From Thermodesulfobacteriota bacterium (GTDB lineage: Bacteria > Desulfobacterota_D > UBA1144), in NCBI GenBank assembly GCA_029246845.1, contig JAQWMJ010000006.1:1-64000 (forward strand): 64,000 bases of DNA, in the 5' to 3' direction. Positions 5,354 through 56,649 of this stretch are shown here, in pieces (position 1 is the stretch's first letter; every line of letters begins with the position of its first letter). Under the pieces are notes generated by a model that did not search any database, had not been told where the DNA came from, and saw only the letters and a program-made list of their open reading frames with translations. Position numbers and translations under genes: made by a program.

Positions 5354-6244
5354 ATGAGGAAAAATAATAGTAAGCTTAAAAGTAATAACAAGAATCTGCC
5401 AGTGCCAGCAAATTCGCTGGAGAAATATCTTACAGAAATAAGTAATTATGAAATTTTGTCACGCGAAGAAGAGGTAAAGCATGCCCAGGAATATAGAGAC
5501 TCAGGTAACCGAGAATCTGCTAGAAAGCTAATAACTGCAAATCTTAAATTCGTAGTAAAGATTGCTATGGAATATAAAAATTATGGACTTAATTTAATGG
5601 ATGTTATACAAGAAGGGAATCTTGGTCTTATGCAGGCAGTTACTAAGTTTGATCCAACAAAAAGGTATAGGTTAATTTCTTATGGAGTATGGTGGATAAG
5701 AGCATATATACAGAACTTTATAATGAAGAACTGGAGTCTTGTAAAAATTGGAACAACGCAAGGGCAAAGAAAGCTATTTTATAAAATAAGATCGGCTAAA
5801 AGTTTATATAACTCTGGAGATCTTTCCTTGGAAGAATACTATTCAAAATTATCTAGTGATCTTAAAGTCTCGATTAAAGAAATAAAAGAAATGGATCAAA
5901 GAATGGGTGGAAAGGACTACTCCCTAGATGACGAAATTAAGACAGATGAAAAACAAACAAAAATCGACTTTCTGCCTTCTGGTTCGCAAAGTCAGGAAGA
6001 AATAATAATAGAAGACCAGCAAAAAAAAGAGTTAGAATCCAGCTTGAAAGAAGCTATAAAAACCCTAAACGAAAGAGAGGCTTATATAATAAATAATAGG
6101 TTATTATCTGACAAACAAGTTACCTTAGAAAAATTAGGTGACAAATTTAAGATTTCTCGTGAGCGCGTTAGGCAAATTGAAAAAACTGCGATAAAAAAAA
6201 TAAAAAAAATTCTTATTAAAAATGGGATTACAGCTGACTTTTAA
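5354..6244 (+). CDS. rpoH: RNA polymerase sigma factor, RpoH/sigma32 family
   Basis: DVIQEGNLGLM, WWIRAYI, RpoH-box-like QRKLFYKIR, ISRERVRQIE. Confidence 0.85.
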   Translation: MRKNNSKLKSNNKNLPVPANSLEKYLTEISNYEILSREEEVKHAQEYRDSGNRESARKLITANLKFVVKIAMEYKNYGLNLMDVIQEGNLGLMQAVTKFDPTKRYRLISYGVWWIRAYIQNFIMKNWSLVKIGTTQGQRKLFYKIRSAKSLYNSGDLSLEEYYSKLSSDLKVSIKEIKEMDQRMGGKDYSLDDEIKTDEKQTKIDFLPSGSQSQEEIIIEDQQKKELESSLKEAIKTLNEREAYIINNRLLSDKQVTLEKLGDKFKISRERVRQIEKTAIKKIKKILIKNGITADF

Positions 6245-53345: not shown

Positions 53346-54707
53346 TTATTTATCCCAAGGATGCTTCTTCTCGGGTTTTTGACTATATGGATTCTCTTTA
53401 TCTGGATGGAAATACTTAAAAGTATTAACATGTTGATCAGTATAAGAACCTGGAGGATAATATTTATCATAAAAATCCAAATCCATATTCTGAGCCTGGA
53501 AAACTAACCTCATATACATTGGGTCGACATAAGCTGGAAAAGATCCATAAGTGTCATGAATATAGTCAGCAACAGACTTAACAATCTCATTTGTTGTATC
53601 AGTAGGCCTTGGTGCTTTAACTAAGTGTTTGTCTGGCTCTTCATATGGAAAAGGTTTCTTGGAGTCCCAAGCGGCCCATTTATGTTCATCCATTTTATCA
53701 TATGCATCAGACATTGTTTTATAATATGGAGGGCAGTAGCCTTCAAAAATTCCATCTTTACCAACAGGTCTAGTCGGACCAGACTTTGGTTGTTCAAACC
53801 TAAAACCTAATCCTTTAAAAAGTTCAGGATTTGATCCTAGCGTGAACCTAGGTATGAGACCAGTAAATGTCCAACCACCTAACCCAAGAGCTTGAAGAGC
53901 TAGAGACATGTTCTGGCAAATAAATGCTTGTTCAACATTAAGACCAGTCAGTATTCTAACTTCAAGATCATATAATGACATTTTGACTTCTTCTTTTATT
54001 CTTCCAGAAGCAATCCATTTGTCTTGACCACATGAGCGATTATTTTTTTCATCCCAAATATTAAATGCATAAGTACTACTGCAATAAAGTGTCAATAAAT
54101 TTAAATACTCCTCAGTTATATCAGTAACAGGGATAAACGTTGTAGTACCAGCCTTGTTTGTATTCCATTGGTTAAAGTCAAAAAGACCAGGCATCTTGTC
54201 TGGCAAGTTGGCCCTACCGTCCTCAAGCTTAACAAGCCCTTCTCGATACAATTCTAACAACCTGTCAATTTTATCATTTACATTAAGTCTAAAAAAGACA
54301 TCAAGTTCTTTATCTTTAGGTAACATGTTTTTAACATCTACATAATAAAGACCGGAGTCATTAGTGAAAAAAAGCTCTGTACCGTGGTTATTACATGCAG
54401 AAGGCCATGTTCTGCCTGTCCATTGACATAATAAATCAATTCCATTCTCAGGTGGTAAATCTGCAAGGCATAGTCCGGTTAAACCGGTACCTGCCCAAAC
54501 CAACATAGCTTCTTGAAATTCAGTTAAAGGAACAGGGTCTATTTTTGACTTATACCCCAGAGAGCTATCTGAAGGGAGCTCCATTCCTAGACCAAACCTA
54601 CGAGACCTTCTATTAAAAATAGCTTCAAACAAAGGGTACTTTAAAGCAGCTTCGTAATTAACCTTTCCATTTCCCTTTCCATTTCCATTTTCATTTTTTT
54701 TTGTCAT
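53346..54707 (-). CDS. Uncharacterised protein with nitroreductase/SagB-like (FMN-binding) motifs
   Basis: AIFNRRSRRF, RTWPSA, EQAFICQNMSLALQALGLG. Confidence 0.55.
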   Translation of the reverse strand: MTKKNENGNGKGNGKVNYEAALKYPLFEAIFNRRSRRFGLGMELPSDSSLGYKSKIDPVPLTEFQEAMLVWAGTGLTGLCLADLPPENGIDLLCQWTGRTWPSACNNHGTELFFTNDSGLYYVDVKNMLPKDKELDVFFRLNVNDKIDRLLELYREGLVKLEDGRANLPDKMPGLFDFNQWNTNKAGTTTFIPVTDITEEYLNLLTLYCSSTYAFNIWDEKNNRSCGQDKWIASGRIKEEVKMSLYDLEVRILTGLNVEQAFICQNMSLALQALGLGGWTFTGLIPRFTLGSNPELFKGLGFRFEQPKSGPTRPVGKDGIFEGYCPPYYKTMSDAYDKMDEHKWAAWDSKKPFPYEEPDKHLVKAPRPTDTTNEIVKSVADYIHDTYGSFPAYVDPMYMRLVFQAQNMDLDFYDKYYPPGSYTDQHVNTFKYFHPDKENPYSQKPEKKHPWDK

Positions 54708-54771: not shown

Positions 54772-55200
54772 TTAGGTTAGAGCTTGTTTTTTAATTTCTT
54801 CTTTCTCAAGTTCTTTTATAGCTAACTTTACAGTAGATATACCCAAAGTAGAGCATTTTGGCCTGGAAAGTGCTAGTTCCTCACCAATAATATCAGTAAT
54901 AATCTCAGGTCCCATAGATAAAATCTCTTCTTTTGATTTCCCTATTACAACTTCGGAAATAATTGATGTTCCAGCTTGACTAACAATACAACCTTCACCT
55001 TCAAATTTAAAATCTGTAATCACATTATCTTCAAACTGAAGACAAACAGTCACTATATCGCCACAACCTGGGTTTCCACCATTTTGTTTAATATCACAAC
55101 GATGCTTACTTTTATCTTCATCACTAAGAGAACCCGAGTTTCTCGGATTCTCATAATGATCTAAAATAAAGTCCATTAGTTCTTGTTTATCTTTTGTCAA
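54772..55200 (-). CDS. SufU/IscU-family (NifU_N) Fe-S scaffold or sulfur acceptor
   Basis: ILDHYENPRN, NPGCGD, GEGCIVS, RPKC (three conserved Cys). Confidence 0.88.
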   Translation of the reverse strand: MTKDKQELMDFILDHYENPRNSGSLSDEDKSKHRCDIKQNGGNPGCGDIVTVCLQFEDNVITDFKFEGEGCIVSQAGTSIISEVVIGKSKEEILSMGPEIITDIIGEELALSRPKCSTLGISTVKLAIKELEKEEIKKQALT

Positions 55201-55211
55201 ACCAAACCTCT

Positions 55212-56054
55212 CTATTTCTCAATAGGCGCTTGAACAAGATTTCCCCATTCAGTCCAGGATCCATCATAGTTTTTAACACTATTGTATCCAAGGAGATAAG
55301 TAAGAACAAACCAAGTGTGAGAAGACCTCTCACCTATTCTGCAATAAGCAATAACATCGTCTTCTGGCTTTAAACCAGCACCGTTTTGATATATTTCAAG
55401 CAACTCGTCTGCAGATTTAAATGTTCCATCTTCATTTGCTGCAGTTGCCCAAGGGACACTTTTAGCGTTAGGAATATGTCCACCTCTAAGTGCACCTTCT
55501 TGAGGATATGCTTCCATGTGAAGCATCTCACCGCTAAATTCTTTAGGTGATCGAACGTCAATCAAGGCCCCCAAAGAAGCGCTATGTTCTTTAACCTCTT
55601 CCCTAAATGCTCTAATGCCAAGATTAACATCAGCAACTTTATAATTTGTATTTTCTAAAGAAGGGACATCTTTGGAAAGCGGCTTCTTCTCTTCAATCCA
55701 CTTTTGTCTTCCCCCGTTCATTATAATACATTTCTCATGGCCATAAATTTTGAATGTCCAAAATGCGTAGCATGCCCACCAGTTGCTCTTATCTCCATAA
55801 AAAACAATCGTATCTTCGGGTGAAATTCCCTTTGAAGAAAGCAGTTTTTCAAAATTATCTTTGTCTATGTAGTCTCTTATAAGATTATCTTGAAGCTCTG
55901 TCTCCCAGTCTATTTTTATTGCTCCTTCAATATGACCTATGTCATATAAAAGAATATCTTCGTTAGATTCAAGTATCTTAATTCCTGGTTTATCCTTATT
56001 CTCTAAGACCCAGTCAGTTGAAACTAACAATTCCGGATTTTTATATTCTGCCAT
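55212..56054 (-). CDS. Tandem rhodanese sulfurtransferase (CysA/SseA type)
   Basis: [20 protein letters not shown], active-site [25 protein letters not shown]. Confidence 0.93.
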
Positions 56055-56066
56055 TTTACTCCTCCA

Positions 56067-56090
56067 TCTGGCCTTATTAATAAAGCCAGA
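56067..56090 (-). promoter_or_regulatory. Hairpin immediately 5' of the sulfurtransferase Shine-Dalgarno
   Basis: TCTGGCTTTA-TTAA-TAAGGCCAGA (10-bp stem including one G-U pair), followed by TGGAGGAGTAAAATG. Confidence 0.45.
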
Positions 56091-56125
56091 ATTAAATTAA
56101 ATTTTAAATTTATAACTAACCAATA

Positions 56126-56215
56126 CTACTTGTAGTTACAACAACATAAGTTTGAAAAGTTACAACAACATGTATCTACTTCACTAACAAGCGATACAAA
56201 CAATGTTTTAACCAT
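56126..56215 (-). CDS. Cysteine-rich leader peptide (29 aa) MVKTLFVSLVSEVDTCCCNFSNLCCCNYK
   Basis: AGGAG SD 6 nt before ATG; two TGT-TGT-TGT-AAC runs; TAG stop 71 nt before the sulfurtransferase ATG; below the ORF-track size cutoff. Confidence 0.75.
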   Translation of the reverse strand: MVKTLFVSLVSEVDTCCCNFSNLCCCNYK

Positions 56216-56249
56216 AACAAACTCCTAAACTTTTTGTAACTCAAAGAGG

Positions 56250-56271
56250 AAAGATACCGAACGGTATCTTC
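56250..56271 (-). terminator. Strong hairpin after the riboswitch (terminator or expression platform)
   Basis: GAAGATACC-GTTC-GGTATCTTT followed by CCTCTTTG (imperfect U tail). Confidence 0.5.
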
Positions 56272-56272
56272 A

Positions 56273-56324
56273 CCCTATTTAGCAATTATTTAATGTCGCT
56301 GCAATTAGAGTTAAATGACGACAT
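56273..56324 (-). promoter_or_regulatory. SAM-II-like riboswitch aptamer (H-type pseudoknot)
   Basis: AUGUCGUC-AUUUAA-CUCUA-AUUGC-AGCGACAU-UAAAUAAUU-GCUAAA-UAGGG: P1 AUGUCG/CGACAU, conserved UUU, UUGC and GCUAAA, pseudoknot CUCUA/UAGGG; 52 nt; upstream of sulfur genes. Confidence 0.75.
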
Positions 56325-56328
56325 ATAG

Positions 56329-56358
56329 ATTATAGCACTGAAATAAAATAAAAATCAA
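56329..56358 (-). promoter_or_regulatory. Extended -10 promoter driving the riboswitch leader
   Basis: TTGATT-18 nt-TATAAT with TGc extension; predicted +1 at about 56322-56324, the 5' end of the aptamer. Confidence 0.65.
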
Positions 56359-56400
56359 TATTATATTTAAATAAGTAATTCATTAGGTTATTATTTTTAC

Positions 56401-56649
56401 ATGAGTGAAGTTGAAGAAAAAACAGTCGATCCTGAATCTAAGGATATTTCGGCGTCTAAAGAAGAGGCTGATGTTCAAGCGACTCCAGAAGAACTAGAGG
56501 AAGAAGTGCACGTAGTTCCACCTTACCCTGAAAGAGTTCCTAACGCTGAGAAAGGTGCCGATCACGCACACGCTTATGTGATGTTAAAAATATTGTTTCT
56601 CTTGGTAGTTTTTTCTTTAGTAATAGCAAAATTCACCTCACCTTTTTAG
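56401..56649 (+). CDS. Small hypothetical protein with acidic N-terminus and single C-terminal TM helix
   Basis: 82-aa ORF with protein-like composition; TATTAT -10 box 6 nt upstream. Confidence 0.6.
   Translation: MSEVEEKTVDPESKDISASKEEADVQATPEELEEEVHVVPPYPERVPNAEKGADHAHAYVMLKILFLLVVFSLVIAKFTSPF

Follow-up and report, generated by a model that had tools for sequence, protein, structure and literature searches.

Does a 29-codon open reading frame (ORF) with two runs of three cysteine codons, lying directly upstream of a sulfurtransferase gene, act as a cysteine sensor, and how would it act on the genes behind it? The ORF lies in a 64,000-nucleotide (nt) stretch of DNA from a Thermodesulfobacteriota bacterium (Desulfobacterota_D; UBA1144), which is referred to here as the window (GenBank assembly GCA_029246845.1, contig JAQWMJ010000006.1, positions 1 to 64,000 of the forward strand). 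The initial annotation read it as an upstream ORF encoding a putative cysteine-sensing attenuator peptide and did not give its strand, which is the minus strand. The ORF exists, but it is not free-standing, as it forms part of the leader of a SAM-II-like riboswitch (SAM, S-adenosylmethionine). From the comparison of related leaders, this short ORF (sORF) is likely to be a translated leader peptide that senses Cys-tRNA within the expression platform of the riboswitch and controls sulfur-acquisition operons. Because the same arrangement stands before two further sulfur-acquisition operons, a single leader RNA probably senses the supply of methionine/SAM as well as that of cysteine.

The sORF and its signals are as follows.

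56126..56215, minus strand: 29-codon leader ORF MVKTLFVSLVSEVDTCCCNFSNLCCCNYK followed by a TAG stop, taken from the ORF list, with an ATG start and a frame that is kept in 46 leaders.
56222..56226, minus strand: Shine-Dalgarno (SD) sequence of the sORF, AGGAG, 6 nt 5' of the ATG, which pairs, together with the spacer, to the element anti-SD1.
56162..56170, minus strand: first Cys run, three TGT codons, seen in rhodanese-type leaders and not in every paralogue.
56138..56146, minus strand: terminal Cys run, three TGT codons, the proposed stall site; the run is found in 31/31 distinct sORFs.

The two Cys runs, the SD at 56226..56222 with its 6-nt spacing and the placing of all Cys codons, each of them TGT (6/6), in a twofold 14-nt repeat had been described correctly. 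The 14-mer ATGTTGTTGTAACT has exactly two copies in the window (56158-56171 and 56134-56147, minus strand) and no match in any of 100 dinucleotide shuffles. Cysteine takes 6 of the 29 codons, against 1.05% genome-wide, and a single tRNA-Cys gene with the anticodon GCA serves the genome. As a nucleotide word, TGYTGYTGY is no rarity: the window contains 6 against 2.1 ± 1.7 expected, and the genome (1.04 Mb, 32.6% GC) has 103 sites, 11 of which (8 runs) lie outside ORFs of at least 90 amino acids (aa). Five of these 11 intergenic sites (4 runs) fall in three SAM-II-type leaders, and across the whole genome every intergenic Cys run outside these leaders lacks an SD with ATG. The exact sORF peptide has no match in a collection of 15 billion proteins, which fits its unannotated state.

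The leader of this locus is one copy of a repeated module. The genome of the window (G000), which is estimated to be 91% complete, has four such leaders, three of them with an sORF that closes on 3-4 Cys codons (contigs C38, C39 and C50).

Leader 1: before the rhodanese-SufU operon of this window, with sORF MVKTLFVSLVSEVDTCCCNFSNLCCCNYK.
Leader 2: before a sulfate-assimilation operon, cysI-cysD-cysN-PiT-type permease-cysH, with sORF MVNLNILLFLKGKDLCSPNFTNSCCCS.
Leader 3: before an SBP56/methanethiol-oxidase-like gene, with sORF MLFISKDYSCFSLLNCCCCSFK.
Leader 4: before a thrC-like and ThiS/MoaD-like gene pair (C12:7923-9566, locus L070), with the riboswitch and no sORF.

The methionine-branch operon thus has the SAM sensor alone, and the operons for sulfide and sulfane sulfur have the SAM sensor together with a Cys-codon ORF. 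In the thrC-type leader, the SD and ATG of the module serve as the start of the thrC-like gene itself, and this leader precedes the thrC-like/ThiS-like pair in 19/19 genomes of the family. Searching these 19 genomes with BLAST gave four copies of the leader in each of G000 to G004, three in G005, four in G010 and one in each of the other 12. The poly-Cys leaders are confined to two genera of the family, g1 and g6. A covariance model of the module, built from 49 copies and scanned across the class with strict filters, found it in 19/120 class genomes, that is, in 18/18 other family members plus the genome of the window, and in 0/101 other genomes of the class. No similar leader was found at cysK.

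Two side observations concern the thrC-type locus. The thrC-like pyridoxal phosphate (PLP) enzyme carries a Cys-rich, zinc-ribbon-like motif at its N-terminus and its partner is a 92-aa ThiS/MoaD-like protein, a pair that resembles a MetM/MetO-type thiocarboxylate route to homocysteine and is a candidate for one (names from Table 2 of PMC13759103). In G010, two near-identical thrC-type leaders with their gene starts (L063, C14:17546-17673; L060, C20:17047-17162) are either a true duplication or an assembly or binning duplicate.

The initial annotation had suggested looking in homologous leaders for conserved Cys codons beside variable other residues, and this is the pattern that was found: the terminal run is kept and the N-terminal half diverges. 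From genomes and metagenomes, 46 sORFs were pooled, 33 of them distinct, and 31 were analysed after two with an N had been dropped. The pattern used to scan the metagenomes comprised the end of the post-aptamer hairpin, the RNA element A and the SD (features given below), and included no Cys codon; it returned 31 loci, of which 28 had the riboswitch aptamer, and the Cys-run sORF was present in 28/28 of these. The terminal run comprises three Cys codons in 26 sORFs, four in two, five in two and two in one, so that its length changes by whole codons only (2-5), and it ends 1-3 codons before the stop in 31/31. Five different distances separate the ATG and the run (45, 60, 66, 69 and 81 nt), each a multiple of 3. 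Upstream of it, the N-terminal half is hypervariable (MVKTLFVSLVSEVD, MTKTMCDIRLCVIN, MSKTVSINFVSFAA, MVEIISVLHACLAD) beside rhodaneses that are 91-97% identical, while the C-terminal CCC-N-Y-K is kept within rhodanese-type leaders.

The choice of codons at the run is skewed as well. The terminal-run codons are 95 TGT to 3 TGC, against 67% TGT genome-wide, and the three TGC are, by reading of the sequences, the first codon of the run and outside the pairing element B2. The codon after the run is RRC in 31/31 (AAC in 25, AGC in 5, GGC in 1), whereas AAC makes up 24% of Asn codons genome-wide. These codon choices support selection at the RNA level. One SBP56 leader, of G004 (L066:1440-1800), shows what happens when the module decays. 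About 29 nt have been deleted, comprising the 3' half (strand) of the aptamer, the hairpin and element A, and the Cys run has been lost by substitution and a 4-nt deletion (CCCC to C-F-C-G); promoter, spacer, hairpin and SD are kept, and the flanks have about 90% identity. The joint loss of riboswitch parts and Cys run suggests that these parts work, and vanish, together.

The conserved end of the sORF also takes part in RNA pairing, for which three elements have to be named.

56234..56242, minus strand: element A, GAGUUACAA, which complements B2 and UAACUC of the aptamer loop.
56148..56154, minus strand: anti-SD1, CAAACUU (Ser-Asn-Leu codons), which pairs with GAGUUUG of the sORF SD and spacer.
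56134..56141, minus strand: element B2, UUGUAACU, made up of the final Cys codons and the Asn codon; it pairs with A and can locally also pair with 56110-56118.

Two nested helices result, A:B2 and sORF SD:anti-SD1. Over 31 distinct sequences, 97.3% of 451 cells are paired (97.2% in helix 1, A:B2; 97.5% in helix 2, SD:anti-SD1), and sliding the 3' partners by 1-3 columns as a control left only 31-49% of the whole structure paired. Eight helix pairs vary through wobble-compatible single changes. The duplex of SD and anti-SD1 is present in 21/21 correctly parsed distinct leaders, with the consensus partner CAAACUY, which lies directly ahead of the run and comprises conserved Ser-Asn codons, and two cysI leaders of genus g6 use another anti-SD, GCUCCU against GGGAGU. 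Coding and pairing constraints therefore overlap at the Cys run, as in known attenuators.

Element A occurs in all leaders, including the thrC-like ones without sORF. In the thrC leaders it pairs with the translation-initiation region, which suggests that A is the effector strand of the riboswitch. In genus g2 (thrC-type leader L047 of G006) the partner of A is the local UGUUGUUGUAC just before the SD; UGU repeats can thus arise as complements of A without any sORF, and the Cys run may have originated from such a seed.

Upstream of element A, the leader contains three further features.

56329..56358, minus strand: promoter-like site TTGATT-18 nt-TATAAT with TG before the -10 box, 10/12 matches to the consensus.
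56258..56332, minus strand: SAM-II-like (SAM_alpha, RF00521) aptamer, Rfam 35.1 bits, E 2.1e-5, model positions 1-79.
56245..56276, minus strand: post-aptamer hairpin of 12 pairs, in which the purine tract AGGG base pairs with CCUCU(U), which is anti-SD-like.

The promoter-like site is weak evidence alone, as sites of this kind number 9 in 2 kb and 6.7 ± 2.5 in shuffled sequence, and it is kept in orthologous leaders. Contigs from RNA libraries of four studies span the aptamer, the sORF, the rhodanese and the SufU-like gene, a weak hint of co-transcription given possible DNA carry-over. They reach 56296 and none covers 56322-56500, which hints weakly at a start at the predicted promoter, the RNA runs being stored as contigs in which starts, ends and strand are unreadable.

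When 11 other loci were compared with RF00521, four scored 30.5-32.9 bits and the other seven had no match at E <= 0.01 in a larger search. In 49 distinct aptamer copies, P1 and the motifs UUGCA and UGCUAAA are invariant, so there is no covariation to count there. Compensatory changes were found in 7 of the 19 pairs of aptamer plus hairpin, all seven in the hairpin (49 distinct sequences). The purine tract AGGG lies where classical SAM-II aptamers have their SD, but it has no start codon and is paired into the hairpin. A consensus scan did not flag this hairpin as an intrinsic terminator, and its 3' tail is U-poor with the base helix included.

Between the sORF and the genes lies a structured spacer, and the features downstream are the following.

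56110..56118, minus strand: element C, UAGUUAUAA, a possible 3' hairpin arm with the stop codon in the loop, from sequence reading and folds.
56068..56089, minus strand: hairpin CUGGCUUUAUUAAUAAGGCCAG directly 5' of the rhodanese SD; arms in orthologues differ yet are complementary (by eye).
56059..56065, minus strand: rhodanese SD, GGAGGAG, read from the sequence.
55212..56054, minus strand: two-domain rhodanese/sulfurtransferase, 280 aa, Pfam PF00581 at 110 bits in 2 stretches.
54772..55200, minus strand: SufU/IscU-like protein, 142 aa, NifU_N at 81.6 bits and the SufU model at 80 bits (cut-off 92.5).
53346..54707, minus strand: 453-aa protein with no Pfam or NCBIfam match (NCBIfam at E <= 1e-5).

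The sulfurtransferase that had been placed directly downstream is this 280-aa rhodanese, on the same strand and 71 nt downstream of the sORF. It scores 99 bits against a model of 3-mercaptopyruvate sulfurtransferase, under the cut-off of 250, and its closest named relatives, at 69-73% identity, are in metagenome-assembled genomes (MAGs) labelled Thermodesulfobacteriota or Spirochaetia. The 453-aa gene is possibly the last of the rhodanese operon. In cysI-type leaders, analogous hairpins of Cys run and stop codon are formed from other arm sequences.

Read from its 5' end, the leader comprises the promoter, the aptamer, the covarying hairpin, element A, SD and ATG, 15-27 variable codons, anti-SD1, 3-5 UGU codons overlapping B2, a stop 1-3 codons on, the structured spacer and a strong SD. 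For the switching of the downstream genes we infer the following mechanism. When Cys-tRNA is scarce, the ribosome would pause with a UGU of the run in its A site and its footprint over anti-SD1 and B2, and both helices would be kept melted. The sORF SD would then stay open, further ribosomes could load, and the leader, held unfolded, would leave the downstream genes on. With ample Cys, the ribosome would terminate and depart, the helices would re-form and the riboswitch would set the state of the leader. In the favoured read-out, binding of SAM would free the strand CCUCUU-GAGUUACAA, which would zip onto B2 and the downstream SD; this SAM-driven masking would be overridden by a ribosome halted on B2 for lack of Cys, so that repression would need SAM and Cys both replete. 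It is possible, though doubtful as a whole, that the leader is such a hybrid RNA logic gate, in which sulfur-acquisition genes are repressed only when SAM and cysteine are replete, and that its copies make up a regulon of riboswitch plus 'ribulon'. The same tentative standing applies to the origin of the device by copying of the thrC-type riboswitch module ahead of three operons.

Folding bears on this read-out in several ways. RNAalifold was applied to two separate sets, 11 rhodanese/SBP56 leaders and 7 cysI leaders. It pairs CCUCU with the downstream SD, adjoining A:B2, and CCUCUU-GAGUUACAA, as one contiguous strand, closes the leader as a whole. In single-sequence ensembles, CCUCU is the main partner of the downstream SD in 9/16 leaders. 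Two other pairings were considered and rejected. No complementarity was found by which the Cys run would pair directly with the downstream SD in the mycobacterial style. Pairing of A with UAACUC of the aptamer loop as the SAM-free state is weak, being the minimum free energy (MFE) structure in 6/35 leaders with a mean difference of 1.7 kcal/mol, and it appears in one thrC leader fold.

A number of results count against the proposed sensor and its read-out. The support for cysteine sensing is comparative throughout. Covariation in the two helices is thin, with 1/15 pairs compensatory (G-C to A-U, in helix 2) and 4+1 pairs invariant, because the structure was derived from the same sequences and A is fixed by the metagenome search pattern. 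In two cysI leaders (L055 and L056) a C-to-A change breaks A:B2, and the z-scores of this duplex are only about -2, or about 0 for L055 and L056. Given the strong constraint at the nucleotide level, part of the 'Cys' conservation could reflect RNA structure. The aptamer stays below the Rfam gathering score of 36 in every scored copy (30.5-35.1 bits). Masking the stall site in partition-function models of 16 leaders brought no consistent rise in accessibility of the downstream SD, and CCUCU is predicted to be held in the base of the hairpin in both modelled states. Finally, no intrinsic terminator follows the sORF, either in the consensus scan or in folds of rhodanese-type and cysI-type spacers, where the hairpins have no U tracts. 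For the proposal of a cysteine-sensing attenuator this means that the sensing of Cys has comparative support, with the same kind of sORF at two further sulfur operons, and that no terminator was found that would make the leader an attenuator in the classical sense.

Where the terminator is missing, a Cys-sensing leader peptide might be read out by Rho (or a decay nuclease) instead. The untranslated spacer would then abort the transcript after normal termination, and a ribosome stalled 1-3 codons before the stop would block the abortion, as in the tna operon. This is the main and a serious alternative for the last step, the only step with which it competes, although it appears less likely than not. 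The position of the Cys run, 1-3 codons from the stop in all sORFs, is the geometry of tnaC, Rho is encoded in the genome (672 bits), and neither an intrinsic terminator nor pairing of the Cys run to the downstream SD was found; for terminator-less actinobacterial Cys leader peptides whose Cys codons lie near the stop, Rho has in fact been proposed (Seliverstov et al., 2005, PMC1262725). However, the spacer after the stop is very C-poor, with 0 C in the first ~36 nt of the rhodanese and SBP56 leaders, unlike known rut (Rho utilization) sites, and it is structured, with covarying stems, while the single tested precedent is translational (10.1101/834739). It could also be asked whether the sORF needs to be translated at all, since Cys codons that are simply the 3' strands anti-SD1 and B2 would leave SAM as the sole input. 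The strength of the nucleotide-level constraint (AAC in 25/25 Asn codons after the run, TGT in 95/98), the 97% of cells that fit the helices and the occurrence of A with a UGUAA-type partner in thrC-like leaders without sORF all fit such an RNA-only element. Yet the spacing of SD and ATG is kept, the frame is kept across five distances, the run varies by whole codons with the stop always 1-3 codons on, and 21-33 codons pass without an in-frame stop in a genome of 33% GC. Moreover, the first two run codons and the entire first CCC run lie outside the helices and are Cys nonetheless, and the run stands only before genes that provide cysteine synthesis with sulfide or sulfane sulfur, the methionine-specific operon being without it. 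An element of RNA alone is thus improbable.

The initial annotation had named a metal-binding mini-protein or a precursor of a ribosomally synthesized and post-translationally modified peptide (RiPP) as the less likely alternative, and this order stands. A functional Cys-rich peptide, which might carry metal or persulfide or be a RiPP precursor that the 453-aa neighbour matures, could account for the conserved C-terminal CCC-N-Y-K of rhodanese-type leaders and for the family-less protein that follows in the operon. It is nevertheless very improbable, as the N-terminal half is hypervariable, the C-terminal tail has 1 to 3 residues, and the three paralogues all lie in 5' leaders of unrelated operons, two of which lack the 453-aa gene. 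In addition, the 91%-complete genome has no match to the YcaO family, the 453-aa protein itself matches no NCBIfam model at E <= 1e-5, and the fixing of rare synonymous codons points to selection on the RNA. The Cys-tRNA-sensing leader peptide within the riboswitch leader is the reading that is compared below with known systems.

The leaders trpL, hisL and pheL are classical leader-peptide transcription attenuators, and the mgtA leader of Salmonella joins an Mg2+-sensing RNA to the proline-codon sORF mgtL, with a read-out that involves Rho. The present leader is like that of mgtA in that an RNA that senses a ligand is joined to a short ORF, and the speed at which this ORF is translated would report a second signal, but the ligands (Mg2+, and proline or EF-P, elongation factor P) and the pathway differ, and there is no homology. 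Unlike trpL, hisL and pheL, it has no terminator/antiterminator pair that could be found downstream of the sORF. With these leaders and the predicted actinobacterial Cys leaders (PMC1262725) it shares the enrichment in codons for the very amino acid made available by the operon, and the position of the regulatory codons near the stop, where they overlap a pairing segment.

The closest parallel is the one that the initial annotation had drawn, with the mycobacterial polycysteine sORFs, and it holds in that the two would work alike although they have no homology and belong to unrelated phyla. In the mycobacterial case (Ms5788A, the 'Cys ribulon'), stalled ribosomes relieve sequestration of the SD (Canestrari et al., 10.1101/834739). 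Shared features are a short ORF that has at least 3 Cys codons in a row close to its end, the presence of several such loci in one genome, all preceding cysteine or sulfur genes, and RNA pairing of the Cys-tract region that a stalled ribosome would melt, for which a terminator is unneeded. The present sORF differs from the leaderless mycobacterial ones in being led by an SD, with ~110 nt between the predicted -10 box (56329) and its ATG (56215), and in lying behind a SAM-II-like aptamer, without sequence homology and in another phylum. Unlike in mycobacteria, the helix by the Cys tract sequesters the SD of the sORF itself, and not demonstrably the downstream SD.

Leaders with two sensors are known already. 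For the riboswitch half, the leader of Pelagibacter ubique (RF00521; PMC11508383) offers the nearest comparison. The aptamer matches SAM_alpha along its full length, it precedes a methionine-branch operon in a streamlined marine bacterium, and two sensors stand in series. However, the second sensor is here a translated Cys-codon ORF and not an aptamer, the aptamer scores under the Rfam cut-off, and the SD position holds a hairpin-paired purine tract without a start codon.

In the literature, no report was found in which a SAM-II riboswitch and a Cys leader peptide occur together, and nothing on riboswitches of Dadabacteria; most subscription journals were outside the search. Predictions of Cys leader peptides were found for Actinobacteria only. 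To our knowledge, cysteine-sensing leader peptides have been demonstrated in mycobacteria only. The present case would place the same Cys-sensing solution, fused to a riboswitch, in an unrelated, uncultured and genome-streamlined marine lineage. One leader of ~290 nt could integrate SAM/methionine and cysteine, the two compounds in which sulfur assimilation ends. It would be a compact natural two-input RNA device, would show sulfur control at the level of a whole regulon in an ocean bacterium that is abundant, and would illustrate clearly how regulation can evolve when a leader module is copied and pasted.

Apart from this family, CCC sORFs upstream of homologous rhodaneses in other phyla were seen at 3/71 loci, each followed by a GC-rich hairpin and a T run.

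L174:373-493, a Cellvibrionaceae (gammaproteobacterial) MAG: CCC sORF MMIIMICYCCCKN, with a weak match to Phe_leader at 30 bits against a cut-off of 55.
L156:290-445, an Anaerolineae MAG: CCC sORF beginning with MMTMPLYPPAVCCPTCCCTQ, followed by a canonical terminator-like hairpin.
L169:373-510, a Phototrophicaceae MAG: CCC sORF MSESNVVFTPMQCCCTEADC, followed by a canonical terminator-like hairpin.

These three loci look like classical Cys attenuators. Terminator-bearing CCC sORFs in Chloroflexota and in a gammaproteobacterial MAG suggest that Cys leader peptides are wider spread than recognised.

Some minor observations concern the spacers and the flank of the locus. The hairpin before the rhodanese SD, with varying arms, occurs seemingly class-wide (by eye), including genomes without riboswitch or sORF, in which it would be the 5' end of the mRNA. 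The spacers of cysI-type leaders (~100 nt; L068 at ~5520-5650, minus strand, and L052, L054, L057 and L061) contain complementary AAUUUGAUAU ... AUAUCAAAUU and variants. These arms could close a variable insert, and their sequences differ between genomes while complementarity is kept (by eye); MFE folds of single sequences show the long-range stem in some leaders, for example L056, L054, L053 and L078. On the plus strand, at 56401-56649, a divergent ORF encodes an 82-aa protein that is acidic in its N-terminal half, has a hydrophobic tail at the C-terminus and matches nothing in Pfam, and a gene seems to stand at the same divergent position in many relatives (by eye).

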